A stretch of 64,000 bases of DNA, from positions 90,133 through 154,132 of the forward strand of contig JAVZJR010000001.1 in assembly GCA_038870635.1 (NCBI GenBank), read 5' to 3'. The position numbers and the translations under genes are program-made. The notes below the pieces were generated by a model that was given only the letters and a program-made list of their open reading frames with translations, was not told where the DNA came from and did not search any database. Shown here one piece after another: positions 1 through 29,994 of the stretch; position 1 is the stretch's first letter, and the number at the start of each line of letters is the position of its first letter. Source of the DNA: Candidatus Bilamarchaeaceae archaeon. GTDB lineage: Archaea > Micrarchaeota > Micrarchaeia > Anstonellales > Bilamarchaeaceae.

Positions 1-136
1 CGGAAATTTTAAAAATATTGCTCTAATATTTGCTTTAGATAAATTTATAAATGTTTCTTTAAACCGTAATTTTTTTATATCCGCTTTTGCGTGAAGATAA
101 TATTATAAATTATATCGTCGATATATCGGCGTCGCG

Positions 137-8563: not shown

Positions 8564-9241
8564 ATGAGTAGAATAATTTTATTTTTGATTATTTTTTTAG
8601 GTATTTTAAATGCTATTCAAATACCAATATACGAAGAAAAAGAAACCGGTGCGACAGGTACGGCGCACTTTAGTATTAAAGTATATTATGATTGCGAAAA
8701 AATGATAACAATTGAGGTAGCCGACGAAGCAACAAACCAGCCAATACAAAATGCTCAAATTTTTGTTTTTTATGAAGAAAGATATACGTCTTTGCTTGGA
8801 AGTGGAAAAACAAACAACGAAGGGATATATAACTACTCTCTTATAGGAAACCCGCAAAACATGAAAAATTTATTCCTCATAACTTTTGAAAAAAGTGGCT
8901 ATAGAACAAAAGAAGTGCACTTTTTCATTCCTCAATACTGCGTGGAAATAAAGAAAGAAGAAAATGGCGCCAACGATTCGGTAACAAATAAAAAGAACGA
9001 TACAATAGATGACAAAACTACGCCTTCTGTCAATGAGCAAAAAAGTAAAAACGAGGAGAACGCTTCGATAAGAAATAACAATCAGACAAGCCAAAACATT
9101 GAAGAAACGAAAAAAGAAAAAAATGATGAAAACCAAATTGAAGAAAGTAAAAAACAATTTTGTTGTATAAGCGGGATAGTGTCGCTACTGACTTTTGCTT
9201 TTTTGCTCATCCAAAATCGCAAGCGCTCCAACCACATTTAG
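8564..9241 (+). CDS. Secreted hypothetical protein with N/K/E-rich linker and C-terminal hydrophobic anchor
   Basis: Signal-peptide-like N-terminus and low-complexity linker; C-terminal tail overlaps the small zinc-ribbon ORF on the opposite strand. Confidence 0.35.
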   Translation: MSRIILFLIIFLGILNAIQIPIYEEKETGATGTAHFSIKVYYDCEKMITIEVADEATNQPIQNAQIFVFYEERYTSLLGSGKTNNEGIYNYSLIGNPQNMKNLFLITFEKSGYRTKEVHFFIPQYCVEIKKEENGANDSVTNKKNDTIDDKTTPSVNEQKSKNEENASIRNNNQTSQNIEETKKEKNDENQIEESKKQFCCISGIVSLLTFAFLLIQNRKRSNHI

Positions 9242-9326
9242 GGCATTCGATACATCCCTCTCGATGAATTAGTAACGCGCCACAAACAGGACATTTTTCA
9301 AGTTTATGATTTTCGTTTTCTTCCAT
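9207..9326 (-). CDS. 39-aa zinc-ribbon micro-protein (CPVCG…CIECPKCG)
   Basis: ATG…TGA ORF below the track cutoff, read off the reverse strand; two CPxCG knuckles. Confidence 0.3.
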   Translation of the reverse strand: MEENENHKLEKCPVCGALLIHREGCIECPKCGWSACDFG

Positions 9327-9330
9327 ATAA

Positions 9331-9699
9331 TCATTTAAGAAGGCCGCCAAGCGACTTTATGCTTTTTATTATACCTTCTGATTTTGCCTTCCACCCTGCA
9401 AGGAAGCCTTTTAATTTTTCGGAGCCACGAAGTAATGATAAGATTTCACCAGCTGCATTTAGCATCTTTTTCTCTGAAGTAAAACTGCCGCCTTCATGGA
9501 GCACTCGAAGAAGTTCAGTAACTCCTGCTTTGGTATACATGTGTTCTCCTGTTTTGGGATCTATTTTATTTGTCCACTCTTTTACAAAAGCCTGTGCCTC
9601 CGGACTTTTTATAAATTCTTTAAAGGAGGAACCTCTTTCCTCTTTTTTTTCCTCAGGTTTAACCATTTCTTCTTTATAGATACCAAACCATTCAAGCAT
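9331..9699 (-). CDS. Hypothetical protein (122 aa)
   Basis: Track ORF 9331..9903 trimmed to the internal Met (MLEWFGIYKEE…) because the upstream 68 aa are low-complexity and overlap the start of the next gene. Confidence 0.35.
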   Translation of the reverse strand: MLEWFGIYKEEMVKPEEKKEERGSSFKEFIKSPEAQAFVKEWTNKIDPKTGEHMYTKAGVTELLRVLHEGGSFTSEKKMLNAAGEILSLLRGSEKLKGFLAGWKAKSEGIIKSIKSLGGLLK

Positions 9700-9766: not shown

Positions 9767-10681
9767 ATGAAAAGTAGAATATACTTCCTAATGAGTATGC
9801 TAATCGTCTTTTTACTCTTAAGTGGTTGCATAAATATACCTACAAATGAAAAAGGAGTAGAAAAATACGAAAAACAAAATAATGAATTAAAAAATGAGGA
9901 CACTAAAGCGGTAAATACTCAAGAACAAAAAATTATAGATAACAAAACACAACAAACTGAGACAGATGAAAATAAATCAGTTTCAATTGAAGAAGAAATA
10001 AAGAAAACTAAAAAAAAGGAGATAAATTTCAAAACGAAAGATTCGTGGTTGATATATGGAGATATATATTATTCAAAAACAAAAGAGCCGCAAAAAGCAA
10101 TAGTTTTGCTTCATCAATTGGGGTCAGATAGAAATGATTACGCTTCACTCATACCGCCACTACAAGAAGCATTTCCAGAATACGATATAATAGCACTTGA
10201 TTTAAGAGGTCATGGCAAAAGTACAAACTTAGGCAGTTACAGCAACTTTGGGAGCGGTGATTATAAAGCGATGAAAAATGATGTTGAAGGGTTGAAAACT
10301 TATCTTGATGTAGAGAGACCAACAATAAAAGAATTTTACTTAGTAGGCTCAAGTATTGGAAGCTCAGTTGCGCTTGACTACGCAGCAAATAGCGGTTTTG
10401 TTAAAAAAGTGATAATGATATCGCCTGGTATTGCATACAAAAATTACAATATAAAAGAAGCTGCAAAAGATTATATGTACGGCTTGTACTTAGTAGCTGC
10501 AGAAGAAGATGATTACTCTGCTCAATCAGCAGAAGAGATATATCATTTATCTCCATCAGACTCAAAAGTCTTAAAGATATATTACAATATGGGAGCGCAT
10601 GGTATGGAGTTAAGTGAAAAAACAAAAAACGAAAGCGAGCCACTTAATAGTCTAATTATAAAATGGATTGGAAAAAACTAG
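9767..10681 (+). CDS. Secreted alpha/beta-hydrolase fold protein with lipobox-like signal peptide
   Basis: [21 protein letters not shown] signal/lipobox, LRGHGKS and GSSIGSS (GxSxG nucleophile elbow); start moved to the internal ATG. Confidence 0.55.
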
Positions 10682-11787
10682 AAGATGCCTAAAAACTTTT
10701 TACCACTTTCTTTTTCAAATTCTTCAAGAAGTTCTCTTTGCCTTTTAGATAATTTCTTTGGTATTTCTACTTTTATATGAATTTTGAGGTCTCCCCTGCC
10801 GCTTCTCTGAAGACGAGGCATTCCTAAACCTTTTAGAGAAATAGTATCTCCCGGTTGCGTGCCTGCGGGGATAGTTATTTTTTTCTTTCCATCTACAAGA
10901 GTTTGTATCTCAATTTCTTTTCCTAAAGCGGCTGCTGTAAAAGGAATCGTATACTCAGTAATAAGGTCATCACCTTGCCGAGAGAATAAAGGATGTTTTT
11001 TTATCCTAACATCGATATAAAGGTCACCATAGCCTCCTTTATCATATTCTCCGCCATTATCTATTCTTATTCGCATCCCATCGAATGCGCCCGCTGGTAT
11101 ACCAATAACCATTTTTTCTTTTTGTTTTTTTATACCACTGCCTTCGCAAGCGCGGCATATTTTTTCATGAATCTTTCCACTTCCACCACATTTACGACAA
11201 GTAGTAATGGCTTGAAAAGTCATTGGACCCATTCTTTTAGTAGAGCGTACCTGCCCCCTGCCGCCGCAATCAGGGCAAAGGCGTAAAGAAGAACCAGGTT
11301 CTGCACCACTTCCGTTGCATACGTCACAACGTTTGTTCCTTACAAATTCAACTGTATGACTTACTCCTCTGGCAGCATCTTCTAATGTTATTTGAACAGT
11401 AGCTTGAAGGTCTGCACCTTTTCTTGCTCGTGAACTTCTACTAAAGCCGAAAATATCAAATGGATTTTTGCCAAATCTTCCAAAAGGCCCAAAACCAAAC
11501 TCAGCGAAAAGATCTTCGAAATCAGAAAAGTCTGCACCTCTGAATATATCTTCCTGCGTATAGTATTGGCCAAAACCTTCATGACCATAGGTATCGTACT
11601 GCCTTCTCTTCTCATCATCGCTAAGTACAGCATAAGCTTCATTTATCTCTTTGAACTTTTCCTCTGCTTCTTTTGATTTGTTGCGATCAGGATGATATTG
11701 TAGCGCTAGCTTTCGATAGGCGTTCTTTATCTCTTCTTTAGTTGCGTTCCTTGAAACACCGAGAATTTCGTAATAATCTCTCTTCAT
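10678..11787 (-). CDS. dnaJ: Chaperone DnaJ (Hsp40)
   Basis: J-domain with HPD, G/F-rich region, four CxxCxGxG zinc-finger repeats. Confidence 0.9.
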
Positions 11788-11801
11788 TAATTCACTTCCT
11801 A

Positions 11802-13685
11802 TTAATTACTGTCTTCTGGCCTTTTTTGACCTCCAGTGCCATATCCCTCATAAGAGTTCCCCCCTGTATCGCCACTTGAGTAGCTACCACCTGCGCCAGG
11901 CCCAGGTCCTTCAGTACTGCCAAAACTTCCGCCGCCAGTGCTTTGCTGATAGAAAGAACCACCGATCTTTTCTAAAACTTTTTTAAGTTGGTCAGTTAAA
12001 TCATGAATCTTAGCTATGTCATCGCCTTTCATAGCCTCTAACAATTGCTCTTTTGCTTTTTTCACTTCATTCTTTTGCTCCTCTCCTATTTTATCCTTAA
12101 ACTCTTCTAGCATTTTATCTCCAGCGTATATGACAGATTCCGCATTATTTTTTGCCTGTGCAAGCTCATATTGTTTCTTATCTTGCTCTGCGTATTGCTC
12201 TGCCTCGCGCATTCTTTTTTGTATTTCCTCTTCGCTCATTTTGTGAGGCGCAACAATTTGTATTCTCTGTTCTTTACCAGTAGCCTTGTCTTTTGCTGAA
12301 ACATTTAGTATGCCATTGGCATCAATATCAAAAGTTACTTCTATCTGTGGAACGCCACGAGGAGCGGGGGGGATACCGGTAAGTGTGAAACGACCAAGTG
12401 AAATGTTATCTTTTGCCATTGGCCTCTCTCCCTGAAGCACGTGTATATCAACCGAAGTTTGAAAATCTGCAGCAGTAGTGAAGATTTGTGATTTTCTTGT
12501 AGGAATAGTGGTGTTTCTTTCGATAATCTTTGTCATTACGCCGCCAAGAGTTTCTATACCAAGAGTAAGCGGTGTTACATCAAGCAAAACAATATCTTTT
12601 ATTTCTCCTGAAAGGACTCCGCCTTGGATGGCCGCACCCATAGCAACACATTCCATTGGATCGATGCCGCGCTCCACTTTTTTGCCAACTATATCCTCAA
12701 CGAATTTTTGGATAATAGGCATTCGTGTAGGACCACCAACAAGTATAACTTTATCTATTTGACTCGGCATAAGTTTAGCGTCAGCTAGTGCACGCTCTAC
12801 AGGACCGCTGCAACGCTCTACGATTGGCCTAACAAGATCTTCGAGCTTGGCCCTTGTGAGTTTGTAAGTAAAGTGTTTAGGAGTATTGTTTACAGATGTT
12901 AGGAAAGGTAAATTTATTTCAGTCTCAAGCATTGTTGATAGCTCTATCTTTGCTTTTTCTGCAGCTTCCCATATCCTATTTACTGCTTGTTTATCATTTC
13001 TTATATCTACACCACTTTGTTTTCTGAATTCATCTATCAAGAACTCTGCGATTACTCTATCCATATCAGTTCCACCGAGTTGGGTATCTCCAGCAGTTGC
13101 TTTTACCTCAAAAACACCACCACCAAATTCCATTATAGTAACATCTAAAGTACCGCCACCTAAATCAAAAACCATTATCTTCATGTCTTTTCCAACTTTA
13201 TCAAGCCCGTAAGCAAGACAGGCAGCAGTAGGCTCATTAACTAAACGCACTACTTCTAAGCCAGCGATTCTTCCTGCATCTTTTGTTGCCTGCCTTTGAT
13301 TATCATTGAAGTAAGCGGGCACTGTTATAACTGCTTTTGTAACTGGTTCACCTAAATGAGCTTCTGCATCTTTTTTTATTTTCTGCAATATAAAAGCAGA
13401 GAGTTCTTGCGGCGTGTACTCTTTTCCTCTAATGTTGTAACGAAAAGTTGTTCCCATCTTACGTTTAAAACCAGTTACTGTTCCTTCTGGATTAGCGACA
13501 AGTTGTCTTTTTGCTGGCTCTCCAACAAGACGTTGACCATCTGCTGTAAAAGCTACATAACTGGGAAACGACTTTCCATAGAGTGATGTCCCTTCACTAC
13601 TTGGAATTATACGTGGTTTTCCACCATCTAAATAAGCTGCTGCACTATTTGAAGTTCCTAAATCTATCCCTATAATTCTACTCAT
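11802..13685 (-). CDS. dnaK: Chaperone DnaK (Hsp70)
   Basis: [29 protein letters not shown] signatures; GAGGTGAT SD. Confidence 0.95.
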
Positions 13686-13697
13686 AATATCACCTCT

Positions 13698-14221
13698 TTA
13701 ATTTTTTTCATTTTTATTATCATTACTTTTTCTACCTATTATCACTTTTGCATGGCGCAATACTTTTCCATTGAGAAGATAACCTTTTTGCACTACTGCC
13801 AAAATCTTTCCATCTTCTCCTTCTTCTGTTTTTACCGCTTCATGAAGATAAGGATCAAATCTACCGCTACTTAAATCCATTTCCTCTAAACCTTCTTTTT
13901 TTAATGTAGAAAAGAGATTTTTGTATACTAAATCCATACCGTGGCGAAATTCTTCTGCATTATTTTTCTGTTGTAAACCAAGTTCAAATTGATCCAAGAT
14001 AGGCAATATATTAAGAATTAAAGATGCTTTACTACTCTTTGCAAAGTCAACCTTTTCTTTTTCAGCTTTTTTTATGTAGTTATCAAAATCAGCATGAAGG
14101 CGCAAAAGCTTGTCCTCTAACTCTTTAAGGCGTTCCTCCAGCTTCTGCGCCCCTTCGTTGTCTTTTTCTTCATTCTGTTTTTTCTCTATTTTTTTCTCGT
14201 CGTTTTTTTCGCTGATAACAT
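13698..14221 (-). CDS. grpE: Nucleotide exchange factor GrpE (N-terminal ~39 aa requires a +1 correction in an A7 run)
   Basis: GrpE helix/beta core is in the ORF 13698..14105; the upstream in-frame sequence (…EGAQKLEERLKELEDKLLRLHADFDNY…) is GrpE-like but has no start codon, whereas an ATG overlapping the hsp20 stop (TGATG) sits in the +1 frame. Confidence 0.7.
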
Positions 14222-14658
14222 CACCTTACTTTTATTTCTTTCTTTGGTGCGCTTGCGGCTACTTTAGGCAAACTAATAGTCAACACGCCGTTTTTGAATT
14301 CGGCATCAACTTTATTTGGATCTATTTCTTCAGGTAAACCAAACACACGTTTGTATCCTGTATAACTTCGCTCGCAATAATAATAGTTCTTTTTCTTCTC
14401 CTCATCAACAATTTTTCGCTCTGCACTAACAGAAACTGAATTCTTGTCCGCAGTTATTTTTATGTCTTCTTTTTCAACTCCAGGCAATTCAACACGAAGC
14501 TCAAAAGAATTTCCCTTATCTACAAGATCACTTAATGGGCTTCTGATAGACCACTCTTTTCGCCCCACCGTCATAAAGTTTTCAAACAAGTCATCCATCT
14601 CTTCTTGCAGCTTTCTAATCCTTTCAAAAGGGTCATACAACCTTATTTCTCTTCTCAT
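14221..14658 (-). CDS. hsp20: Small heat-shock protein Hsp20 / alpha-crystallin family
   Basis: Alpha-crystallin domain (FELRVELPGVEKEDIKI…GVLTISLPK); GAGGTGAT SD. Confidence 0.85.
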   Translation of the reverse strand: MRREIRLYDPFERIRKLQEEMDDLFENFMTVGRKEWSIRSPLSDLVDKGNSFELRVELPGVEKEDIKITADKNSVSVSAERKIVDEEKKKNYYYCERSYTGYKRVFGLPEEIDPNKVDAEFKNGVLTISLPKVAASAPKKEIKVR

Positions 14659-14669
14659 ACAATCACCTC

Positions 14670-15146
14670 TTAATCCATACGCATTATTTCATTTTCTATC
14701 AAGCGTGCGATGCGTTTTATTTTTTCAAAACGGCGAAGTATTTCTTCTTCCAATTCTTCAATAGTATCATCTAATCGTTGTCTCTTAAGATAGTAATATC
14801 GTCCATGCTTTACAACAAGGCCGGATTTCATCAAAGTGTTTAAATGATAAACAACCGCGCCTTGCGTAACTTTACATCTTTCACTTATTTCAGCAGAACG
14901 GACACCACCATCACTTCTTTTTACGAGTTCTTTAAAAACTTCTTTTGCAACGCGATCATCTTCCTCACCAAAACCAAGACATTGAAATATCCATTCTATG
15001 TATTCCTCAGCATTTCTTCCACGTGGTTCTTGAACATCCTTTAGTATAATGGCCGCACATGGTTTTTTCCTGTATGCTGCTGCAGGGTTATCGTTTAGTT
15101 TTATAACTTTTAGTTTTTTTGGTCTTATCTTTTGGGAAGCGACCAT
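14670..15146 (-). CDS. Winged-helix transcriptional regulator, putative heat-shock operon regulator
   Basis: C-terminal wHTH (SAEISERCKVTQGAVVYHLNTLMKSGLV); first gene of the hsp20-grpE-dnaK-dnaJ strand. Confidence 0.5.
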   Translation of the reverse strand: MVASQKIRPKKLKVIKLNDNPAAAYRKKPCAAIILKDVQEPRGRNAEEYIEWIFQCLGFGEEDDRVAKEVFKELVKRSDGGVRSAEISERCKVTQGAVVYHLNTLMKSGLVVKHGRYYYLKRQRLDDTIEELEEEILRRFEKIKRIARLIENEIMRMD

Positions 15147-19631: not shown

Positions 19632-21362
19632 ATGAGGAATATGCTTTTTGAGGATGTTGTAAAAGTATTTGACAAAGTTGAAGAAAAAAGCGGCCGCATC
19701 GAGATGACTAACATTCTTGCAGAACTATTTAACAAAGCAACTTCTGCGGAAATAGAGAAAATAGTCTATTTTGTGCAAGGCATTGTTGCACCACCTTACG
19801 AGGGAGTAGAGTTAGGGATGGGGGAGAGGTTTGCTATTGCTGCAATAGCAAGTGCCACAGGCTACTCTGCCCAGGAAGTTGATGAGAATTATAAAAAAAC
19901 AGGCGACCTTGGCATAACAGCAGAAAATTTTCTCAAAAAAAAGAAACAGCGTTCTCTTTTTGCAAATCCGATTGATGTAATCCACCTTCATGAATCATTG
20001 GTAAGAATAGCAAAAGCAAGTGGACCAGGAAGCACAGAACTTAAGAAAAAATATTTAGTCGAACTGCTAAACAACGCAACTCCTCTCGAAGCGAGATACA
20101 TCGTGCGTTTTGTTCTTGGAAGATTACGTCTTGGTGTTGGTGACCCAACCATCCTAGATGCACTTTCAGTTGCAAAATTTGGTGACAAATCCTGGCGAGA
20201 AAAATTAGAAAGAGCATACAATGTCTGCGCAGATATGGGTTATGTAGCAAAACTTTTTTATGAAAATGAAAAAAATATAGATAAGTTTAAAGTGCAACCA
20301 TTCAAACCTCTTATGCCTGCACTTGCAGAAAGGCTAAGCACCGCCGAAGAAATAATAGAGAAGATAGGTGTATGTGCGGTAGAAGGAAAATACGACGGTT
20401 TTCGTTTGCAAGTTCACAAAAAAGGGAATGAAGTTGAGCTTTACTCACGTAGGTTAGACAAGATGACAAAAATGTTTCCTGAAATTGTAGATGCGGTGAA
20501 AAGATTACCAGTAGATAGTATAATATTTGAAGGTGAAGCGCTTGCTTATAATGCCAAAGAGCGTAAATATTATTCCTTCCAGCAAACAATGCAAAGAAAA
20601 AGAAAACATAGAATAAGTGAAAAAGCAGAAGAACTGCCGCTGAATTTATTTTGTTTTGATATCCTTTATGTTAATGAAAAAGATTACACACAAGAACCAT
20701 ATAAAGTAAGAAGAAAAAAATTAGAAGAGGTGTTTAGAGAAAATGAAGTTCTTAAAGCAAGTGAGCAGCACATCGTCAAAACAGCAAAAGAATTACAAAA
20801 GTTATTTAAGGAAGCAATCGAGCGCGGTCTTGAAGGAGTGATGGCAAAAGACCTTGAAGCACCATATACAGCAGGAAAAAGAAAATTTGCATGGATAAAA
20901 CTGAAAAAATCATATGGTCAAGCAGTAGATACAATAGATGGTATTATTGTTGGTTATTATTTAGGAAAAGGCTCAAGGGCACAATTTGAATTCGGTGGTC
21001 TTTTGGTCGCAGTGTATAACTCAGATAATGGAAGATTAGAAACGGTTGCTAAAATTGGTTCTGGTTTTAGCGAAGAAGAAATGGTTATGCTAAAGGAAAT
21101 GTTAGACAAGATAAAAAGAACTGCGCCCCCTGCAAATGTTAGTTACAAAATAGAACCTGATTTTTGGGTAGAGCCAAAATATGTAATAGAAGTTGCATTT
21201 GACGACATTACACTTTCACCAGTCCATACTTGTGGATTACGTGGTGATAAGGGATATGCTCTTCGTTTTCCACGAATGATTCGCTTAAGAGAAGACAAAG
21301 GAATAAATGAAGCGACAACAACAGACGAAGTAAAGGAAATGTATGAAAAACAAAAAAAATAA
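19632..21362 (+). CDS. lig: ATP-dependent DNA ligase
   Basis: KYDGFR adenylation motif and OB-fold region; the true start may be the ATG at 19641 behind a GAGGA SD. Confidence 0.9.
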   Translation: MRNMLFEDVVKVFDKVEEKSGRIEMTNILAELFNKATSAEIEKIVYFVQGIVAPPYEGVELGMGERFAIAAIASATGYSAQEVDENYKKTGDLGITAENFLKKKKQRSLFANPIDVIHLHESLVRIAKASGPGSTELKKKYLVELLNNATPLEARYIVRFVLGRLRLGVGDPTILDALSVAKFGDKSWREKLERAYNVCADMGYVAKLFYENEKNIDKFKVQPFKPLMPALAERLSTAEEIIEKIGVCAVEGKYDGFRLQVHKKGNEVELYSRRLDKMTKMFPEIVDAVKRLPVDSIIFEGEALAYNAKERKYYSFQQTMQRKRKHRISEKAEELPLNLFCFDILYVNEKDYTQEPYKVRRKKLEEVFRENEVLKASEQHIVKTAKELQKLFKEAIERGLEGVMAKDLEAPYTAGKRKFAWIKLKKSYGQAVDTIDGIIVGYYLGKGSRAQFEFGGLLVAVYNSDNGRLETVAKIGSGFSEEEMVMLKEMLDKIKRTAPPANVSYKIEPDFWVEPKYVIEVAFDDITLSPVHTCGLRGDKGYALRFPRMIRLREDKGINEATTTDEVKEMYEKQKK

Positions 21363-24047
21363 TTACTTCCTCTCACCATATTTCTCTAAGAATAATTCAT
21401 AGGTGCGCAGCATTGATGGCGTAATTGAGGGCCTACGAACAGATATTATAGCCAAAAGATCATCTGTTGTTATTTTTGGCTTTGCAACACCTTCTAATTT
21501 CTTTCTAAGAGCCTGCATCTTTGCGCTTTGGCATATCGAAGCAATGTCTGCACCGCTATAACCATCTGTTGCTTTTGCCACTGCATCAAGATTTACCCCC
21601 TCTCCATATTCTCCAAGGTGAATCTTGAACATTTCCTTTCTCGTATTTTCGTCGGGCGGCGGAATGTAGAATATCTTATCGAATCTGCCTGGCCTTAACA
21701 ACGCTTTATCTATTAAATCTGGCATGTTTGTCGCAGCGATTACTACCACTCCTTTAAGTTCTTTTATCCCATCCATCTCTGTCAAGAATTGACCAACGAC
21801 ATCAGAAGTAGCGCCTATTCCTCTTGCAGGTGCAAAGGTCTCTATTTCATCAATGAAAAGTATCGATGGAGCGTTCTCACGAGCACGATTAAATGCTTCT
21901 TTTATAATAGAAGTTGCTTTATAAAAGCCCTCTTTGCTTAAATCCGCACCGCTTAATGTTTGGAAAGAAACATGCAATTCATTTGCTGCAGCCTTTACTA
22001 GAAGGGTTTTACCAGTACCTGGCGGCCCGAAAAGAAGAATACCCTTACTCGGCTTTATCTTAAATTCTTTCATTAAATCTTCCCTAAGAAGTGGAAGCTC
22101 TATTGCTTCTAAAAGTGCCCTTTTAACCTCTTCCATACCGGCAACATCTTTCCAACTAACCTCTTTTTCCTCAACTTCTTCAACTTTTGTTATTGCACTT
22201 CTTTCGAAATCCATTCTAAACTTTTCGTATTCATCTAATTGCTCAAAAGTAGTGCTCGGCTTTATCTTCTTAAGAAGCAAGAGGAAGTGTTCCATTGTAA
22301 TAGGTACCACTTTACCTGCCATTTCAGCTTCTTTTGCAGCCAATCTTTTAGCTTCAGTTACTAAATTTTTGAGGTCAGCACCTGAGAATCTATCTGTTTT
22401 TTTTGCAAGAATATCAAAATCAATATCAGGAGATAAAGGAATTTTTCGTGTGAGTTTTTTCAGTATATCTTTTCTTGCTGCTAAGTCTGGTAGGTGCATG
22501 TATATTATTTTGTCAAATCTACCAGGTCGCAGAAGAGCAGGGTCAAGTTGATTTGGAATATTTGTAGTTCCAACAACAATAAGATTTGCTTTTGTCTTTA
22601 CTGCGCCGTCCATTTCTTGAAGCATAGTGCTGAGAATACGTGGGGTAACTTCATCAGTACCTCCTTTTTGTCTCTTTTTTCCGATGACATCTATCTCATC
22701 AAAGAAAAGTATCGCAGGGGCCATTTTCCTCGCTTTTTCAAAAACCTCAACAACATTCTTTTCAGATTCGCCATACCATTCACTCATAATGTTAGCGCAT
22801 TTTACTTCAATAAAGTTGTATTTCAATTCTTTTGCAAGTGCCCTCATAAGCATTGTTTTACCTGTACCTGGAGGACCAAAAAGAAGAATTCCTGAAGGCG
22901 GTTTTATACCATAAGCAAGAGCAATTTCTTTTTTCTCAAGAGGAGTTATTATTGCCTCTTTAAGTTCTTGCTTAACATCTTCATAACCACCAACATCATC
23001 CAAAGTTTCCGTACTTGCAGCACCTACATCTTTAAAACCAAACTTATCATAGGCTTTCATTCTATCGGCTTTTTCAAGCTCTGCTTCTTTGCTTATCTTA
23101 ATGCCAAAATGTTCAGCTACTGCTAAGACAACTATTGAAAGTAAAATCAATAAAGTAAAATTAATACTCAAACCGCTTGTTCCAGAAACCACTCCTGCAA
23201 AATAATAAAAAGGCAACAGCAATAAAAGCAAAAGAGCAGAAATGGTTTGGGAATTTTTTTTCAAACGGCCGGAGACGTAGGACATGGCAAATAACACAAC
23301 AGACCAGCCTGCTATTTGAATAAAACCAGAATCCTTGAAAAGCAATATTACACTTTGACCTAGTATAACCAAAAGGCCCTCAAATAACTGAGAGATACTT
23401 TCAAAACTAATAAAATTTGAAAAAAGCGCTGGAATTAAATTTAACTCGCTTAACGCAACGGCCGACCTACTTATCTTCAACGGATTGTCTGGAGAATAAA
23501 GGTTTAGATTTATCGAAAAATAAGCTGTATTTTGTACAAAAAATAAAGAAGACAACAGAAGGATAAGAAAAACAGATGGCGCGGCAACTAACACACTCTT
23601 TTTTGAACCAAAATAATATGAAGCGCAAGCCATACCTAAAATAGAAAAGAAACCGCCAAAAGGAAGACCACCAAAGCTAAATGGTGCGAAAATAAGTATT
23701 TGCAGAATAGATATTAGTAGTTGGTGTTCGAAAACCTCAAAAGCCACTAAAATTAAAACTAATAAAAAAACCCAACCCAATGCAAAAGACTGGTAAATAA
23801 AAGCAGGTAGAGCCAATATAAAAGAAATAAGAGTTGCTATAGGTGGACTAAAGTAAGATATAATAGCGCAAAAAATTGCTAAAAGAAACACAAGAAAAAT
23901 AGGGTAGAATGGAATGGCGGACAGCATAAGAAGAGTTGCAAGAAACACAAAAATAAAAATAGGAAATTTCTCATTTTCTCGTACCATCTGTATATAAGCC
24001 TTTATTTTATTTGCTTCTAAACTTTGATCTATCTGTTTTAATGCCAT
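21363..24047 (-). CDS. Membrane-anchored tandem AAA+ ATPase (CDC48/VCP-like D1-D2, with ~330-aa polytopic N-terminus replacing the N-domain)
   Basis: Two complete AAA modules (GPPGTGKT…DEID…PGRFD, twice) preceded by roughly 10 hydrophobic helices. Confidence 0.8.
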   Translation of the reverse strand: MALKQIDQSLEANKIKAYIQMVRENEKFPIFIFVFLATLLMLSAIPFYPIFLVFLLAIFCAIISYFSPPIATLISFILALPAFIYQSFALGWVFLLVLILVAFEVFEHQLLISILQILIFAPFSFGGLPFGGFFSILGMACASYYFGSKKSVLVAAPSVFLILLLSSLFFVQNTAYFSINLNLYSPDNPLKISRSAVALSELNLIPALFSNFISFESISQLFEGLLVILGQSVILLFKDSGFIQIAGWSVVLFAMSYVSGRLKKNSQTISALLLLLLLPFYYFAGVVSGTSGLSINFTLLILLSIVVLAVAEHFGIKISKEAELEKADRMKAYDKFGFKDVGAASTETLDDVGGYEDVKQELKEAIITPLEKKEIALAYGIKPPSGILLFGPPGTGKTMLMRALAKELKYNFIEVKCANIMSEWYGESEKNVVEVFEKARKMAPAILFFDEIDVIGKKRQKGGTDEVTPRILSTMLQEMDGAVKTKANLIVVGTTNIPNQLDPALLRPGRFDKIIYMHLPDLAARKDILKKLTRKIPLSPDIDFDILAKKTDRFSGADLKNLVTEAKRLAAKEAEMAGKVVPITMEHFLLLLKKIKPSTTFEQLDEYEKFRMDFERSAITKVEEVEEKEVSWKDVAGMEEVKRALLEAIELPLLREDLMKEFKIKPSKGILLFGPPGTGKTLLVKAAANELHVSFQTLSGADLSKEGFYKATSIIKEAFNRARENAPSILFIDEIETFAPARGIGATSDVVGQFLTEMDGIKELKGVVVIAATNMPDLIDKALLRPGRFDKIFYIPPPDENTRKEMFKIHLGEYGEGVNLDAVAKATDGYSGADIASICQSAKMQALRKKLEGVAKPKITTDDLLAIISVRRPSITPSMLRTYELFLEKYGERK

Positions 24048-24075: not shown

Positions 24076-25512
24076 TTAGTACTGCCGAGCAGCATAAACG
24101 TAAACAGTTGCTTCTTTTTCACACGCTATGCATTTTTTTCCTTCTGGCTTTTCGTTATTACCGAAAAGCGTCCCTCTTATATTAGCATGACAGTGCTCTT
24201 TTACAATATCAGCGCATTTTTCACCTTCTTTTTGATCAGTACAAAAAGGTACTTTAACAAAACCAAATTTTTCAAGTTTCTTTTCTAAATCCTCTAACGA
24301 ATCTGCTGATGATATTTGAGATTTAAACCAATCATCTGCACGTTTAATAAGATTTTTTAAAAGCTCTTCTCTTATTTTCTCTATTTCAGTTTTGAGATTA
24401 TCCTCTTTAACTTCAATTTTTTCCTTGGTGTCTCTTCTGAATACAGTAACCACTCCTTTTTCGATATCACGTTTTCCAACTTCTAAGCGTACCGGAACCC
24501 CTTTCATCTCCCAATAGTTAAACTTTGCTCCTGGCGTTTCCTCACTGCGATCGATTTTAACCGAGTAATCCTCTTTTAAGCGTTTTTCTAATTCTTCACA
24601 TTTTTTGAAAACCTCTTCTGCAGTAGCTGCTTTTATTATTGGTACAATTATTATCTGTAAAGGAGCCAGGTCAAAAGGCAAGACTAAACCTTTCTCATCA
24701 CCATGTGTTGCAAACACAGCAGCATATATTCTTGAAATCGCCGGCCCATAACAAGTTTGCCAAACGTATTGCTCTTTTTCATTTTCGTCCATATACTTTA
24801 TACCAAAGGCTTTTGAGAAATTTTGGCCAAGCATATGCGTGCTTGGAAGTTGAAGCACTCTCCTATCAGGTAAAAGAGTATCTGCTGCATACGTGTCTAC
24901 TGCACCTGCAAACTTATCCCATTGTGGCCTTTTGAAAAATAAAAAAGGCACCCCAAATTTTTGGTGTATTATATTCTCTGCCATCTCCATATCTTCTCTT
25001 ACTTGTGCTTCTGCTTCTTCTTTTGTTGCAAAGCAATCGTGCGCCTCTATCCAATAAAACTCTCTTGAACGAATAAAAGGTTTTGTTGCTTTTGTTTCAT
25101 AACGCCATACTTGACAACGCTGGTATATTTTTAGAGGTAAATCTTTTTTCCCATGTATCCAAAGAGAATACATCGTATACATGGCGGTTTCACTGGTTGG
25201 CCTCATCGCAAGTCTTTCATCAAGTGGGTTGTTTCCGGCAGCAGTAACCCAAAAAACTTCTGGTACAAACCCTTGAACATGCTCGCTTTCTTTTGTAAAA
25301 TAACTTTCCGGTATAAGCGCTGGAAAAAGAGCAGGGACATGGCCCCTTTTTTGCAGCTCTTTCTCGTACATTTCATACATTTTATTCATTGTCATGACTG
25401 CCCAAGGAAGAAAAACTACAAAACCTTTTACACCATAACGAATATCGCAAAGTTCTGCTTCTTTTATTAACTGATTGTACCATTCTGAGAAGTTTGATTT
25501 GTCTAATTGCAC
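24076..25512 (-). CDS. proS: Prolyl-tRNA synthetase (archaeal/eukaryotic type)
   Basis: Class II aaRS motifs plus C-terminal zinc-binding domain (CIACEK…); GTG start behind a GGTG SD. Confidence 0.9.
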   Translation of the reverse strand: MQLDKSNFSEWYNQLIKEAELCDIRYGVKGFVVFLPWAVMTMNKMYEMYEKELQKRGHVPALFPALIPESYFTKESEHVQGFVPEVFWVTAAGNNPLDERLAMRPTSETAMYTMYSLWIHGKKDLPLKIYQRCQVWRYETKATKPFIRSREFYWIEAHDCFATKEEAEAQVREDMEMAENIIHQKFGVPFLFFKRPQWDKFAGAVDTYAADTLLPDRRVLQLPSTHMLGQNFSKAFGIKYMDENEKEQYVWQTCYGPAISRIYAAVFATHGDEKGLVLPFDLAPLQIIIVPIIKAATAEEVFKKCEELEKRLKEDYSVKIDRSEETPGAKFNYWEMKGVPVRLEVGKRDIEKGVVTVFRRDTKEKIEVKEDNLKTEIEKIREELLKNLIKRADDWFKSQISSADSLEDLEKKLEKFGFVKVPFCTDQKEGEKCADIVKEHCHANIRGTLFGNNEKPEGKKCIACEKEATVYVYAARQY

Positions 25513-25741: not shown

Positions 25742-27031
25742 ATGGATTTTATAGAAGCGTGCGCTGAATCAAAGAAAATCGCTTTTTCATTCTCTAATCC
25801 GCTTATCGTCCATCACTATGACACAGATGGTATTACTTCCGGGGCAATAGTATGCGCTGCTTTTTTAGAGAACAATAAAAAATTTAGACGTCTATGTATA
25901 AAAAAACTTGACGATATCGCAATAGACAAGCTATCACATGAGAAAGAAATCATTTTTGTAGACCTAGGAGGAGGAAATAAAAGAGTTAACGAACTTAAAG
26001 ATGTGGTTATATTGGATCATCATCAAACTACAGGTATAGAAAAATTTCAGATAAATCCCCATCTTTATGGCATTGACGGGAGTACAGAAATGTCAGCATC
26101 TGGTGTCGCATATTTTGTTTTTAAAACTAAAATAGAACTTGCTATAACTGGAGCAGTAGGTGACATGCAAGCCCCTTTTGTAGGAAAAAATAGGGAATTG
26201 CTCGACATAGGGGAAAAAGAAGGCAGGGTGCGAAGAGAGCAAGACCTTTGCTTTTATGGAAGATATTCTCGCCCATTAGTACAATTCCTTGAATACAATG
26301 ATGAACCCTATATTCCAGGAATATCATATCGTGAAGACAAGTGTATCAACTTGCTTCAATCTCTTCGTATAGAAATAAAGAAAGGTGAAAAATACAGAAC
26401 ATATGCGGATTTAACAAAAGAGGAAAAAAAGGCACTTGTTTCTGCACTTGCAGACATTTTAATAGAGCGTGGCAAGATAAAATCTATTAGCGAACTTATA
26501 GGTGAAAGTTATGTTTTTACAAACCATCAACTAAATGAAAGTTATGAAGCTGGGGAATTCTCTACTCTCCTAAATGCTTGTGGAAGACATAAAAGAGACG
26601 ATATAGGTATCGGAGTTGCTTTGGGTAACGAGAAGTTTTTTGATGAGGCGCGAAAACTCTTACACCATCACAGAGTTATGCTTAAAAATGGTGTGGAACA
26701 CGCGAACACAAGTCTGCAAAATCTTGGGCCTTTTTATCTTATAGATGGACGAGAAATGATAGATGAAAGTATAATAGGAATAGTTTGCGGGATGGTTAAT
26801 CGAAGTGAGTGGGGGAAACCAGTTTTAGGAATAGCAAGAAGTGAAAAAGGTCAGTTAAAAGCATCTGTCCGTGGAAAAGGAAAAAATCTTGGACTCGCTA
26901 TAAAAAAAGCAGCAGAAAAATGCGGCGGTGTGGGAGGAGGTCACACGGTAGCAGCTGGTGCTTCCTTTCCAGAAAAAAATTTAGATGATTTCATTCTTTT
27001 CTTCGCAGAAGAACTAAACAAACAAAATTAG
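25742..27031 (+). CDS. DHH/DHHA1 phosphoesterase, RecJ/GAN-like nuclease
   Basis: HHYDTDG (DxD), ILDHHQ (DHH), GGVGGGHTVAAGA (DHHA1 GGGH) motifs. Confidence 0.6.
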   Translation: MDFIEACAESKKIAFSFSNPLIVHHYDTDGITSGAIVCAAFLENNKKFRRLCIKKLDDIAIDKLSHEKEIIFVDLGGGNKRVNELKDVVILDHHQTTGIEKFQINPHLYGIDGSTEMSASGVAYFVFKTKIELAITGAVGDMQAPFVGKNRELLDIGEKEGRVRREQDLCFYGRYSRPLVQFLEYNDEPYIPGISYREDKCINLLQSLRIEIKKGEKYRTYADLTKEEKKALVSALADILIERGKIKSISELIGESYVFTNHQLNESYEAGEFSTLLNACGRHKRDDIGIGVALGNEKFFDEARKLLHHHRVMLKNGVEHANTSLQNLGPFYLIDGREMIDESIIGIVCGMVNRSEWGKPVLGIARSEKGQLKASVRGKGKNLGLAIKKAAEKCGGVGGGHTVAAGASFPEKNLDDFILFFAEELNKQN

Positions 27032-27465: not shown

Positions 27466-29001
27466 ATGGCGTATGCATTATTGAGCGTTTATCAGAAAGA
27501 AGGCATTGTAGAATTTGCAAAAGAACTTTCAGAATTAGGTTATACTATAATTTCAAGTGGTGGAACAAGCAAAACACTACAAGAAAGCGGCATAAAAACT
27601 ATAGAAATATCAAAATTTACAGGTTCTCCGGAAATGATGGACGGAAGAGTAAAAACACTTCATCCAAAGATACATGCAGGAATATTAATGGATAGAAGTA
27701 ACAAAAAACACATTGAAGAAGCAAAGAAAAATGGAATAGAACCAATAGATATAGTTGTGGTTAACCTTTACCCTTTTGAGGAAACAGTACTAAAAAAACC
27801 ATCACTCGAAGAAGCAATAGAAAACATCGATATAGGTGGACCAACTCTGTTAAGAGCTGCGGCAAAAAATTATAAAAACGTTATAGTAGTATGCAATCCA
27901 AAATATTATAGAAGAGTAATCGATGAATTAAAAAAAGGAGAATTATCTGAAAAATTGCGAGAGGAGTTAGCAGCAGCGGTGTGGGAGCACGTCGCCCACT
28001 ACGATACAGTAATAGAAAATTACTTCAAAAAAAAATGGCAATTGACAGAAGCTTATCCTGATTATCTCAATTTAACATTTAGAAAAAAATGTGAACTGAG
28101 ATACGGCGAAAATCCGCACCAAACAGGGGCGCTTTATTACGACCCTCATGATGGAAATATATCAATAGCTGATGCAAAACAATATGGCGGAAAAGAGCTT
28201 TCCTATAACAATATATTAGATATGAACTCTGCTTACAGATTGATAAACCAATTTGAAGAACCAACGGCAGTGATAATAAAACATAATAATCCATGCGGTG
28301 TTGCGACAAATACTAGCGTAGTTGAAGCGTATAGGATAGCGCGAGCAGTTGACCCAGAAGCAGCTTTTGGCGGAATTGTTGCAGTAAATCGAAAAGTAAC
28401 AAAAGAACTTGCAAATGAAATAATAACCCGTTTTGTCGAAATAGTTTTGGCGCCAGAATATGATAAAGAAGCGATTGAGATTCTCAACAAAAAACCAAAC
28501 TTGCGTGTAATGGAACTTCCTTTTGTACCAATAAAAAACAAATTTAAGACATATCGATCCGTCCTCGGCGGTCTTCTGGTGCAGGATGCAGATATTGAAC
28601 TATACAATGAACTAAAAGTAGTCACTAAAAGAAAGCCAACGAAAGAAGAGATGGAAGCGATGCTCTACGCTTGGAAGATTGTAAAGTATGTACGCTCTAA
28701 TGCGATAGTGTATGCACGAAAAAATAGGGCAGTAGGAATAGGTGCAGGCCAAATGAAAAGAATAGATGCTGCTAAAATCGGAGCCATGATAGCACAAGAA
28801 TTTGGCGATAATACAAAAGGATGTGCGATGGCGTCGGATGCATTCTTTCCGTTTCGTGATGGAATAGATTACGCGGCCAGTTTAGGTATAACTGCCATAA
28901 TACAACCTGGCGGCTCAATCAAGGACAATGAAGTTATAGAAGCAGCAAACGAGCATAATATAGCTATGGTTTTCACTGGGATGAGGCACTTTAGACATTA
29001 G
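27466..29001 (+). CDS. purH: Bifunctional AICAR formyltransferase / IMP cyclohydrolase
   Basis: MGS-like IMPCH N-domain (ISSGGT…VKTLHPKIHAGIL) plus AICARFT C-domain; GGAGA SD. Confidence 0.9.
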   Translation: MAYALLSVYQKEGIVEFAKELSELGYTIISSGGTSKTLQESGIKTIEISKFTGSPEMMDGRVKTLHPKIHAGILMDRSNKKHIEEAKKNGIEPIDIVVVNLYPFEETVLKKPSLEEAIENIDIGGPTLLRAAAKNYKNVIVVCNPKYYRRVIDELKKGELSEKLREELAAAVWEHVAHYDTVIENYFKKKWQLTEAYPDYLNLTFRKKCELRYGENPHQTGALYYDPHDGNISIADAKQYGGKELSYNNILDMNSAYRLINQFEEPTAVIIKHNNPCGVATNTSVVEAYRIARAVDPEAAFGGIVAVNRKVTKELANEIITRFVEIVLAPEYDKEAIEILNKKPNLRVMELPFVPIKNKFKTYRSVLGGLLVQDADIELYNELKVVTKRKPTKEEMEAMLYAWKIVKYVRSNAIVYARKNRAVGIGAGQMKRIDAAKIGAMIAQEFGDNTKGCAMASDAFFPFRDGIDYAASLGITAIIQPGGSIKDNEVIEAANEHNIAMVFTGMRHFRH

Positions 29002-29504
29002 AGATATCTCTTAAATTTATCTACAATGGCCATACTGAGAACGCCATAACTTTTGTGTAGGCCGTGGGGGGCCGTTTCTTCTATTTTTTTTCTTGTTTCT
29101 TCATCAGATATTTGTATCTCAGCACTTATGTCGTTGAGATTAAAATTTATGTTAAAACCACGATAACCACTTTGCTTTGGTTTTGAGTAGTAATCATCAA
29201 CAGATGGTGATTTACCTTTGTTCTTTAGATTGGATATAATTTTTTTGGCAGTTTCTACGGCCTCCTTAACTTCATTAAACACCAATCGCGTACCAATAAG
29301 GTCGTTGATGTACCCTTTTTCTTCAAGCTTTAATGTTGCGCTTTCAGGTGACTTTATTCGCATTTCGACTTCGCAACTCTCCACACCCAAAAGCACTTTA
29401 AGATTTTCAATTGTCTTTTCTAAATCATTCTTTCGTACTTCAAGTTCTCTCTTAATTTTTTTAAGTGTAAGACCAAAAGATTTTTCAACTGCTTTTTCTC
29501 TCAA
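28998..29504 (-). CDS. Small RelA/SpoT-like (alarmone-synthetase fold) nucleotidyltransferase
   Basis: Motifs RIKSPESATLKLEEK (RxKxxxSxxxK), DLIGTRLVF (DxxGxRxV), SGYRGFNI (GYRS-like), AEIQIS (EIQIRT-like). Confidence 0.5.
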   Translation of the reverse strand: MREKAVEKSFGLTLKKIKRELEVRKNDLEKTIENLKVLLGVESCEVEMRIKSPESATLKLEEKGYINDLIGTRLVFNEVKEAVETAKKIISNLKNKGKSPSVDDYYSKPKQSGYRGFNINFNLNDISAEIQISDEETRKKIEETAPHGLHKSYGVLSMAIVDKFKRYL

Positions 29505-29994
29505 TTTTTTTACCAGTAGGCGGGTCTATGACCTCCGCAATCGCAGCGTAAACATAAAGAGTTTTTTTGGGGTCATCTACAATATTAGCCTCTGCCAGCA
29601 CAATTCGGGATATAAGTGTCGCCACGCTTATCTCGTTTTTAAGAATTTTATCTTCATATATTTTAAGTTCCTCTTTTCTTAATTCTTTTTCTTCAAGTAC
29701 CTCTACAATCCTAACTTCACTCATTATTTTAGAAAGTTTTAAAACATCAATAGTAGTAAGGGAAGGTCCGTTTATGCATTTAATTAAAAGATTGAGTACT
29801 GCATTCTCTTTGCTTTTCGGTACTGCAGTTAGAAGTGTTGCCAAAAATGCAGCATCCTTGTCTTCTCCTTTTGCGAGAGAATAAGCACGTTCTGCTAAAG
29901 GGATTCTCTCATATAGTGTTTTTTTATCACAAACGACTGACAGAATGGAAATGTATGTTTCAAACCCCCCAAGCACTTTGTTTTTGTGTACCAT
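29485..29994 (-). CDS. Hypothetical alpha-helical protein, upstream partner overlapping the RelA/SpoT-like gene by 20 nt
   Basis: ORF only; same strand, 3' end overlaps the downstream start. Confidence 0.35.
   Translation of the reverse strand: MVHKNKVLGGFETYISILSVVCDKKTLYERIPLAERAYSLAKGEDKDAAFLATLLTAVPKSKENAVLNLLIKCINGPSLTTIDVLKLSKIMSEVRIVEVLEEKELRKEELKIYEDKILKNEISVATLISRIVLAEANIVDDPKKTLYVYAAIAEVIDPPTGKKIERKSS

Follow-up and report, generated by a model that had tools for sequence, protein, structure and literature searches.

A tandem AAA ATPase fused to a predicted ten-helix membrane domain forms a conserved protein family in Micrarchaeota

Results

An intact gene joins a polytopic membrane domain to two AAA modules

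One gene of the window (the whole stretch of DNA that was analysed, 64,000 nucleotides long) encodes an 894-aa protein in which a polytopic membrane domain of ~313 residues is followed by a linker of ~35 residues and two complete classical AAA modules (Table 1). We consider it an even chance that this protein works as a membrane-embedded hexameric unfoldase that extracts membrane proteins or controls their quality. The accession of the protein is MEM3422111.1, under the title 'AAA family ATPase [Candidatus Bilamarchaeaceae archaeon]', 'AAA family ATPase' being all that the database annotation says of it, and full-text literature searches and the Ca. Bilamarchaeum paper gave no description of the fusion with a polytopic domain.

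Table 1. Coordinates of the fusion gene, its domains and motifs, and the two flanking genes
Feature	Residues	Nucleotides	Strand	Basis or remark
Whole gene, membrane-embedded tandem AAA ATPase	894 aa	21363..24047	(-)	Single ORF
K/R-rich N-terminal helix, predicted cytoplasmic	1-26	23970..24047	(-)	AF2 helix 2-24
TM helices 1-7, very short loops	27-169	23541..23969	(-)	AF2 + hydropathy
Motifs in residues 27-169	PFYP 46-49, YQS 85-87, APF 121-123
GSKKS loop, cytoplasmic (predicted)	147-151	23595-23609	(-)
Weakly hydrophobic insert, predicted extracytoplasmic or interfacial	170-240	23328..23540	(-)
Motifs in the insert	QNTAY 172-176, LY 183-184, D239
TM helices 8-10	241-313 (241-261, 266-288, 295-313)	23109..23327	(-)	AF2 helices
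RLKKN loop, K/R-rich, cytoplasmic (predicted)	261-265		(-)
Cytoplasmic linker (predicted)	314-348	23004..23108	(-)	Helix 321-335
AAA module D1, membrane-proximal	349-619	22191..23003	(-)	Pfam AAA + AAA_lid_3
D1 Walker A	391-398	22854-22877	(-)
D1 pore loop 1 EWYGESE	423-429	22761-22781	(-)
D1 Walker B	446-451	22695-22712	(-)
D1 sensor-1/Arg fingers	495-512	22512-22565	(-)
D1-D2 linker + AAA module D2	620-894	21366..22190	(-)	Pfam
D2 Walker A	674-681	22005-22028	(-)
D2 pore loop KEGFYKA, non-canonical	705-711	21915-21935	(-)
D2 Walker B	729-734	21846-21863	(-)
D2 sensor-1/Arg fingers	773-790	21678-21731	(-)
Conserved C-terminus Y..F...YGERK	883-894	21366-21401	(-)
ProRS		24076-25512	Same strand as fusion gene	28-nt gap
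ATP-dependent DNA ligase		19632-21362	Convergent with fusion gene	Abutting

The reading frame starts with an ATG that agrees with the aligned N-termini of homologues, contains zero internal stops and ends with the stop codon at 21363-21365. A reading made from the sequence alone (hereafter, the sequence-only reading) had named a frameshift joining two ORFs as the finding that would undo the fusion. Two observations gave some ground for such an artefact, in which a frameshift, a misassembly or a wrong start would have made one ORF out of separate genes for a Cdc48-like ATPase and a membrane protein: gene callers split the ORF of one relative (L001) into 260 aa and 123 aa, and comparison of the window with a sister contig showed 46 indels in 22.7 kb. 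However, the break in the relative comes from one in-frame TAG where a Tyr codon is conserved, after which the frame runs on unchanged, and the window ORF is intact, with the identical 894-aa protein present on 12 contigs from several samples. The membrane domain and two AAA modules also lay in one ORF in 17/17 complete loci, out of 18 loci that were found in GTDB with alignment A1 (A2 was too divergent for a genome scan) and that are skewed to close relatives, and the same architecture was recovered in at least 120 protein clusters by full-length profile search. No stand-alone membrane domain was found; the sole candidate (P0025) is truncated by a contig end. On these grounds the artefact is, for practical purposes, ruled out.

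Word-indexed searches with the membrane domain alone or with its profile gave only fragments, and the family was recovered by exhaustive HMMER search and the full-length profile. The HMMER search, covering 1.84 billion proteins, returned 40 representatives with the membrane domain, and in every one long enough to be judged this domain was fused to AAA modules. All organism labels but one in the family were Micrarchaeota (DPANN). The phylogenetic survey that the sequence-only reading had proposed thus points to a conserved fusion family and a candidate lineage-signature gene of Micrarchaeota.

Both AAA modules are complete and Cdc48-like

Pfam searches recognised the AAA core (PF00004, E 4e-82) in two stretches and identified AAA_lid_3 twice. 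The best NCBIfam model was TIGR01243 (CDC48), with 536.8 bits, under its curated cut-off of 802.65, and both stretches aligned to its D2 part. Taken singly, D1 scored 280 bits to the CDC48 model, and 227 bits to p97 D2 versus 175 to p97 D1; D2 scored 269 bits to the CDC48 model, and 227 bits to VAT D2 versus 173 to VAT D1. Both modules, which are 40% identical to each other, are therefore closer to Cdc48 D2 than to Cdc48 D1. The best PDB matches of the protein were p97 (5c18) and VAT (5g4f/5vc7; E ~1e-117), and the protein is probably a hexameric double-ring unfoldase like Cdc48/VAT.

Each module carries the Walker A sequence GPPGTGKT, a Walker B sequence (FFDE or FIDE), a sensor-1 TN and the arginine-finger sequence RPGRFD; the Walker A/B, sensor-1 and RPGR arginines of D1 and D2 were invariant across 19-58 members. 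The sequence-only reading, which had listed two intact Cdc48/VCP-like modules with Walker A/B, arginine fingers and PGRFD, was correct in each of these elements, all of them present and invariant in 19 members. The D1 pore loop follows the consensus [W/Y]-[Y/V/H]-G-E-[S/T]-E and aligned with MWFGES, the pore loop that serves threading in p97 D2; 16/19 members have W or Y at position 424, and G426 and E429 do not vary. The D2 pore loop is remodelled in the family to a non-canonical K-x-G-[Y/F]. In several members homing inteins interrupt D1, within the pore loop and next to Walker B, and inteins typically occupy sites intolerant of function loss.

As had also been claimed, no protease domain was present among the Pfam matches of the 894-aa protein. 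The HbYX proteasome-docking tail, defined as [small/hydrophobic][F/Y]x at the very C-terminus (PMC3493965), is absent as well: the last residues of the window protein are ...KYGERK, and members of the family share the consensus YGER[KR]. In one of them (P0004) an extra C-terminal tail follows, which ends in GMYR.

The membrane domain has a confident fold model and no detectable relative

Residues 27-313 are strongly hydrophobic, with Kyte-Doolittle 19-residue windows reaching 2.7. AlphaFold2 modelled the membrane domain as a helical bundle with 11 membrane-length helices (pLDDT 90.6, pTM 0.86). The first seven TM helices (27-44, 50-66, 68-86, 88-104, 109-126, 129-146 and 148-169; pLDDT 90-97) have a mean hydropathy per helix of 1.45-2.3. 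Residues 170-240, which are built of a coil (170-198) and two amphipathic helices (199-212 and 215-238), showed family mean hydropathy values of -0.17, 0.72 and 0.81, contain charged residues and have hydrophobic moments of 0.29-0.36, versus 0.07-0.12 for the TM helices. Positive charge is concentrated in the N-terminal segment 1-26 (family mean 5.9 K/R), in the loop between helices 9 and 10 (family mean 2.4 K/R) and in the linker 314-348 (6.1 K/R per sequence). Family-wide charge statistics favour ten TM helices plus an outer or interfacial insert of ~70 residues, and hydropathy, the positive-inside rule and the AlphaFold2 secondary structure together favour an N-in/C-in topology; TM parity would require the insert to cross the membrane either 0 or 2 times. 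The second finding that the sequence-only reading had named as fatal to the fusion, a topology prediction without TM helices, was not obtained, and the ~10 TM helices first proposed from sequence agree with the number favoured by charge.

The linker carries a conserved FGKFG-type motif, YDKFG at residues 333-337 in the window protein. In the full-length model (pTM 0.60), pLDDT falls to 63-66 at residues ~331-350, which suggests that the 35 residues between the membrane domain and the start of D1 may act as a tether.

Across 58 sequences, ~20 positions of the membrane domain are at least 90% conserved. Q86 and G147 are invariant, and the conserved positions include N173, P178, Y184 and D239 in the insert and Q244 and W248 in TM 8-10; in the linker, E321, G334 and G337 are conserved to at least 90% too. 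The charge-based topology favours an outer-face location for PFYP, YQS, APF, QNxAY, DSG, Q244 and W248.

The sequence-only reading had placed a polytopic domain of ~330 aa where Cdc48 proteins have a double-psi-barrel N-domain. In agreement with this, residues 1-345 consistently matched no Pfam domain, CDC48_N and CDC48_2 included (0 among 23 members). The membrane-domain profile gave 0 matches at E<=10 against PDB sequences, and the structure search likewise proposed by that reading gave no relative: Foldseek with the membrane-domain model reached a best E of 0.75 against the PDB (TM <= 0.25) and of 0.82 against BFVD, with no likeness to Hrd1, Derlin, Doa10, SecY, YidC or other solved membrane proteins in the PDB. 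We detected no internal repeats by hhalign (probability <=2%) and saw no conserved set of His, Cys or acidic residues of a catalytic kind. The ten-helix membrane domain is a new membrane-protein family without detectable relative in Pfam or PDB.

The gene neighbourhood is not conserved

The genes for ProRS and DNA ligase do flank the fusion gene, as had been pointed out; a functional link was rejected, since these neighbours recur only in the closest relative (L002), and the adjacency is incidental. Other loci had prephenate dehydrogenase among the neighbours, together with genes that, from their sequences, we take to encode an aminotransferase, a membrane pyrophosphatase-like protein, a methyltransferase, and ScpA-like and CBS proteins. 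No partner gene was conserved across loci, and the neighbourhoods reflect lineage synteny with housekeeping genes. In one sub-lineage only (L023-25), a JAMM/Prok-JAB gene lies directly downstream and an S-layer protein gene also follows. Gene neighbourhoods identified no substrate, adaptor or protease partner, and no ubiquitin-like system was linked to the fusion gene. For the lack of FtsH that the sequence-only reading had supposed in the lineage, the analysis covered the 64-kb window, which held no other AAA, Lon or FtsH gene.

Discussion

Extraction or quality control of membrane proteins, the role suggested by the sequence-only reading, is the most plausible function. It fits the geometry, because the entry face of D1 would be tethered to the membrane and D1 has a canonical aromatic pore loop; the searches for a substrate, partner or protease link gave it nothing further. 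In structurally studied classical AAA unfoldases (VAT, Cdc48, FtsH/YME1, Msp1), substrate enters at the N-terminal ring face. As in other classical AAA proteins, the protein would probably form a homohexamer, and we assume that hexamers form and that 60 TM helices can be packed together. The D1 ring would then have six 10-TM domains over it in the membrane, each held by a tether of ~35 residues, and its substrate-entry face would point towards the membrane. The aromatic D1 pore loops (W424-Y425-G426) could grip segments of membrane or membrane-associated proteins and draw the chain through D1 and then D2 into the cytoplasm, with ATP hydrolysed in both rings, the outcome being extraction, dislocation or quality control of membrane proteins. 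Threading of a full-length chain through D2 is not assured, because its pore loop is non-canonical. Since the protein has neither a protease domain nor an HbYX tail, unfolded chains would presumably be released and not handed to a docked protease. The polytopic domain is probably more than an anchor and may recognise substrates or give them passage, as suggested by its being conserved like a functional domain and by the predicted topology, which puts the majority of its conserved motifs on the outer face.

Alternatively, the membrane domain might do no more than hold a Cdc48-like segregase of general function at the membrane. The segregase would then take apart peripheral or cytosolic complexes there, for example the machinery of division, secretion, pilus or S-layer assembly, and extract no integral membrane proteins. 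The predicted flexibility of the tether is consistent with this, as are the many soluble complexes on which Cdc48/VAT relatives work and the absence of a membrane-specific partner from the gene neighbourhoods. However, the membrane-anchored AAA machines FtsH, Msp1 and LonB, which form a single ring, make do with just one or two TM helices, whereas ~310 residues and 10 TM helices have been kept here with invariant polar and aromatic residues in at least 120 clusters, and among the HMMER representatives the domain was never exchanged for another anchor. We regard a mere anchor as unlikely. The conserved outer face is no less compatible with a role as conduit or receptor than with membrane proteins being captured laterally, and six membrane domains could in principle form or gate a protein-conducting path through which the motor pulls extracytoplasmic polypeptides into the cytoplasm, be they misfolded secreted or S-layer proteins or proteins derived from a host or the environment. 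The conserved outer insert, the confinement of the family to an episymbiotic, biosynthetically reduced lineage and the JAMM/Prok-JAB and S-layer protein genes that follow the fusion gene would accord with such a path, and AAA motors that pull chains through membrane channels have precedents in Ycf2-FtsHi and Cdc48-Hrd1. On the other hand, a monomer model allows no inference of a pore or channel, the domain resembles none of the solved membrane proteins searched, those neighbouring genes are limited to one sub-lineage, and the outer-face assignment hangs on the predicted topology; we judge a conduit to be distinctly improbable. There is likewise a slim chance that such a path makes the protein a self-contained retrotranslocon or import motor in a single polypeptide, one that recognises polypeptides at the outer face and pulls them into the cytoplasm without ubiquitin. 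It would then correspond, as a fused prokaryotic version, to Cdc48-Hrd1 or to Ycf2-FtsHi, an import motor.

The roles could also be reversed, with the membrane domain as the working part (a transporter, an enzyme or a lipid-handling module) and the AAA rings regulating or powering it without threading protein. The confident, compact and conserved fold and the non-canonical D2 pore loop would allow this, but no transporter or enzyme family was matched in Pfam or PDB, no catalytic set of the kinds looked for was seen, and D1 has a conserved pore loop of the canonical type in a protein of the classical clade, whose AAA members are protein remodellers. This arrangement seems very unlikely.

If the protein is an extraction machine, it would offer a minimal, ubiquitin-independent model of how a polytopic module passes substrates to an AAA pore, and an insight into membrane proteostasis in a DPANN lineage; if it is an import motor, it might be part of host exploitation by episymbionts, with proteins taken from the host cell. 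The family may relate to the unusual envelope or symbiotic lifestyle of Micrarchaeota, and the membrane domain, with its confident predicted fold, has conserved polar residues open to direct mutation.

Comparison with known systems

LonB is recognised by an AAA+ module with an inserted TM hairpin and a C-terminal Lon Ser-Lys protease domain, and both LonB and Sulfolobus-type MBA (membrane-bound AAA) proteins contain a single ATPase module with few TM helices. They share with the fusion protein that they are archaeal AAA/AAA+ proteins attached to the membrane, and among the archaeal AAA proteins MBA is given a cluster of its own (PMC3493965). The fusion protein is set apart from MBA, by description, by its two ATPase modules and ten TM helices; it scored 29.8 bits against the Lon model (cut-off 608) and has no Lon_C domain in Pfam. 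Msp1/ATAD1, a eukaryotic membrane-anchored AAA dislocase that extracts membrane proteins, also lacks a protease domain; with a single TM helix and one AAA module, versus 10 and two here, it too differs by description. FtsH, to which the mitochondrial i-/m-AAA proteases belong in this comparison, combines 2 TM helices and a periplasmic domain with a single AAA module, to which an M41 zinc metalloprotease (HEXXH) is fused. Like the ring proposed for the fusion protein, its classical AAA ring is anchored in the membrane and turns its entry face to it over a short linker, and its role is membrane-protein quality control (PMC7949044). In contrast, the fusion protein has 10 TM helices, two AAA modules and no Peptidase_M41 among the listed Pfam matches, and its score against the FtsH model TIGR01241 was 421 (cut-off 600), with only the AAA part aligned (profile positions 111-387).

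The closest likeness in the motor is to Cdc48/VAT/p97, which share the tandem of two classical AAA modules, each with a lid and with intact Walker A/B, sensor-1 and arginine fingers. They differ in having a double-psi-barrel/beta-clam N-domain where the 10-TM domain stands here, and, relative to Cdc48, the fusion protein has its canonical aromatic pore loop in D1 instead of D2 and no C-terminal tail or HbYX motif. To our knowledge, Cdc48/VCP motors act on membranes only via separate partners (Hrd1, Derlins, Doa10, Pex15/26). In ERAD, a Cdc48-type motor is linked to a polytopic membrane component and draws chains into the cytosol (PMC7319771). Cdc48-Hrd1/Derlin/Doa10 ERAD thus pairs the same two kinds of part, and whereas it uses separate membrane proteins and ubiquitin-tagged substrates, the Micrarchaeota family combines a probable double-ring Cdc48-type motor and a large, conserved ten-helix membrane domain in one polypeptide.

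A membrane domain fused to a tandem AAA ATPase

The product of the gene, deposited as 'AAA family ATPase [Candidatus Bilamarchaeaceae archaeon]', is strongly hydrophobic from residue 1 to ~313 according to its hydropathy, and Pfam returned no family for this region. The remainder carries two AAA cores and two AAA lids (Pfam). The top NCBIfam model was CDC48 (TIGR01243), with 536.8 bits and below its cut-off of 802.65, followed by PAN, FtsH and CdvC, and the top solved-structure matches were p97 and archaeal VAT (E ~1e-117). Neither Pfam nor NCBIfam detected a protease domain in the protein. These results bear out the sequence-only reading, which had described two intact AAA modules, a hydrophobic N-terminal region in the same ORF and a missing protease domain.

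The fusion is genuine. Twelve contigs from several samples encode a protein identical to that of the window. An exhaustive HMMER search of 1.84 billion representative proteins found 40 relatives of residues 1-340, and all those of adequate length run on into two AAA modules (887-929 aa, longer where inteins are present). The lone apparent stand-alone copy of the N-domain was rejected, as a contig end cuts it. Scanning one genome per GTDB species gave 18 loci; in each of the 17 that are complete, one ORF spans the membrane domain together with both Walker A motifs. A full-length family profile matched at least 120 distinct 90%-identity clusters at 98-100% coverage. The concern that a frameshift had joined two separate genes is thus countered by the uninterrupted ORF, the identical copies and the fused state of every complete locus. 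In one relative, L001 (ENA ERZ23498475 scaffold_44822), gene callers report 260-aa and 123-aa products because of a single in-frame TAG (3583-3585) where the window protein has Tyr257, a conserved tyrosine; the frame continues unchanged beyond it into the AAA module, and the TAG may reflect a point mutation or a sequencing error, or mark a pseudogene.

All 18 loci of the GTDB scan belong to Candidatus Micrarchaeota/Micrarchaeia MAGs. Except for one 'ainarchaeum' MAG, every organism label among profile matches and deposited records is Micrarchaeota (Bilamarchaeum, Bilamarchaeaceae, Anstonellales, Micrarchaeia), and divergent sub-lineages with N-domain identities of 24-31% are located on archaeal contigs. 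Database names are generic (AAA family ATPase, VCP-like ATPase, transitional ER ATPase, SpoVK/Ycf46/Vps4), and no published description of this fusion was found in the literature searched. MAG bin_281 (JAWOLP01) carries a member on each of two contigs (L009 and L014), which could reflect paralogy, strain heterogeneity or bin contamination.

Predicted topology of the membrane domain

AlphaFold2, given an alignment of 23 sequences, produced a confident N-domain model (mean pLDDT 90.6, pTM 0.86). Across the family, lysine and arginine are enriched in the N-terminal segment, with 5.9 per sequence, and likewise in the GSKKS loop (1.8), the 261-265 loop (2.4) and the linker (6.1). Hydrophobicity is weak in residues 170-240, which exceed the TM helices in amphipathic character. 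We infer an N-in/C-in domain that crosses the membrane 10 times and has an outer or interfacial insert of ~70 residues, since no other topology meets the positive-inside rule from both ends with cytoplasmic AAA modules. This agrees with the roughly 10 TM helices proposed earlier. Given this topology, most of the conserved N-domain motifs would lie on the outer face; among them, Q86 is invariant in 58 family sequences.

Features of the membrane AAA family and its loci (residues refer to the window protein)
Feature	Position	Strand	Remark
Membrane AAA gene	window 21363-24047	-	single ORF, 894 codons, ATG start, no internal stops
ProRS	upstream of AAA gene	-	same strand, 28-nt gap
ATP-dependent DNA ligase	ends at window 21362	+	convergent, abuts AAA stop codon (21363-21365)
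N-terminal helix	residues 2-24		AlphaFold2 N-domain model
Helices	residues 27-44, 50-66, 68-86, 88-104, 109-126, 129-146, 148-169		AlphaFold2 N-domain model
Structured coil	residues 170-198		AlphaFold2 N-domain model
Helices	residues 199-212, 215-238, 241-261, 266-288, 295-313		AlphaFold2 N-domain model
Linker helix	residues 321-335		AlphaFold2 N-domain model
PFYP, YQS, APF	residues 46-49, 85-87, 121-123		conserved; predicted outer face
QNxAY, LY, DSG, Q244, W248	residues 172-176, 183-184, 239-241, 244, 248		conserved; predicted outer face
GSKKS (G147 invariant), linker motifs			conserved in 58 sequences; predicted cytoplasmic
Equivalent of intein insertion point	window ~22761-22781		no intein in window allele
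Intein-bearing loci	L003 9995-14155; L007 1434-5633; L010 3394-7590
Heat-shock cluster	window ~10678-15146	-	HTH regulator, Hsp20, GrpE, DnaK, DnaJ
DHH/DHHA1 gene	window 25742-27031		whole; split in L027
RelA_SpoT-domain gene	window 28998-29994	-	two overlapping ORFs (168 + 169 aa) via 1-nt indel
Prok-JAB gene	L023 (GCA_021814005.1 JAKAJC010000012.1) 9079-9468
S_layer_C gene	L023 10055-12889
Second AAA-type gene	L006 20207-21001; L008 20415-21020; L015 20333-21001	-	cut by locus end

The AAA motor

The Walker A, Walker B (DE), sensor-1 Asn and RPGR arginines are invariant in both modules across the family, and both rings are therefore predicted from sequence to hydrolyse ATP. D1 and D2 of the window protein are 40% identical, and each scores higher against D2 of p97/VAT (~227 bits) than against D1 (~173-175 bits). 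The D1 pore loop, EWYGESE, is of the canonical aromatic type and aligns with MWFGES of p97 D2; that of D2 is remodelled to K-x-G-[Y/F]. The full-length model (pLDDT 86.2, pTM 0.60) has confident individual domains, but pLDDT falls to 63-66 where the TM domain meets D1 and to 55 between D1 and D2, which suggests a tether rather than a rigid dock.

The protein ends with the last D2 helix and a conserved Y..F...YGER[KR], which does not fit the HbYX definition for archaeal proteasome-activating ATPases. Nearly all members stop there; the related protein P0004 has an extra acidic/proline tail (...YGERGEEEEAPPPPPPEEKGMYR) terminating in an HbYX-like M-Y-R, a hint that proteasome docking may have been gained in at least one lineage.

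Several members, including P0004, P0005 and P0012, contain inteins inserted exactly in D1 pore loop 1 (WYGE|S...AHN|SEKN). These are ~490 aa long, or ~185 aa in a mini form, with Intein_splicing and LAGLIDADG domains (Pfam). P0012 has a second intein immediately ahead of the D1 Walker B (APC|ITGD...VHN|CILFFDEID).

Gene neighbourhood

The neighbouring ProRS and DNA ligase genes noted earlier were confirmed as a matter of position. No base separates the convergent ligase and AAA genes, so that separate terminators have no space between them. Only the closest relative, L002, shares the ProRS, ligase and DHH-phosphoesterase genes as neighbours, and this adjacency is therefore synteny by descent. 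The remaining members are surrounded by unrelated housekeeping genes, and no conserved partner gene was found among the loci compared.

In one sub-lineage (P0013/P0047; L023, L024, L025), the membrane AAA gene is followed ~50 nt downstream, on the same strand, by a gene for a 129-aa Prok-JAB protein whose JAMM motif (HSHPSGSARPSGAD) is intact, and then by a gene for a 944-aa S_layer_C protein; this arrangement was found neither near other members nor in the window. Three Micrarchaeota loci contain another AAA-type gene (…SGRFSKTIYIPAPD…), distinct from the family gene and ~8 kb downstream of it.

The 64-kb window holds no further classical AAA, Lon or FtsH gene. Membrane LonB is typical of archaea; FtsH is, to our knowledge, typically missing from them. 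The window also carries a heat-shock cluster, separated from the AAA gene by ~6 kb and five unrelated genes, and no link between the two was seen; a DnaK system of bacterial type is noteworthy in a DPANN archaeon. On the sister contigs L027 and L028 the RelA_SpoT-domain gene is unbroken and encodes 331 aa. Over 22.7 kb, the window and L027 show 99.3% identity and 46 gaps, and these indels appear to be either strain differences or homopolymer errors of the assembly.

Proposed mode of action

Classical AAA unfoldases take in their substrate through the N-terminal face of the ring. Here the D1 entry face would be tied to the membrane through ~35 residues, and D1 carries the aromatic pore loop that would grip substrate. 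For these reasons the most economical reading is a membrane-embedded hexamer that would pull polypeptides from the membrane side through D1, then D2, into the cytoplasm. We give about even chances to a role in membrane-protein extraction or quality control.

The membrane domain could instead be an anchor that merely localises a general segregase. We consider this unlikely, given the size and conservation of the domain and the placement of conserved residues on its predicted outer face; the same features argue that it would take part in substrate recognition or passage, beyond anchoring. A true transmembrane conduit, for retrotranslocation or import, appears less probable still, and other readings have a small share.

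Comparison with known systems

The dislocase action proposed for this membrane-embedded puller resembles that of the FtsH AAA ring and Msp1, and its pulling scheme is that of Cdc48-ERAD collapsed into one polypeptide. Cdc48/VAT are akin to it in descent and proposed manner of working, but the window protein lacks their N-domain and scores below the curated cut-off, both of which define that family; from FtsH and LonB it differs in having no protease, their defining domain. We therefore rate it a Cdc48-like type-II AAA protein, specific to Micrarchaeota, whose polytopic N-domain is uncharacterised.
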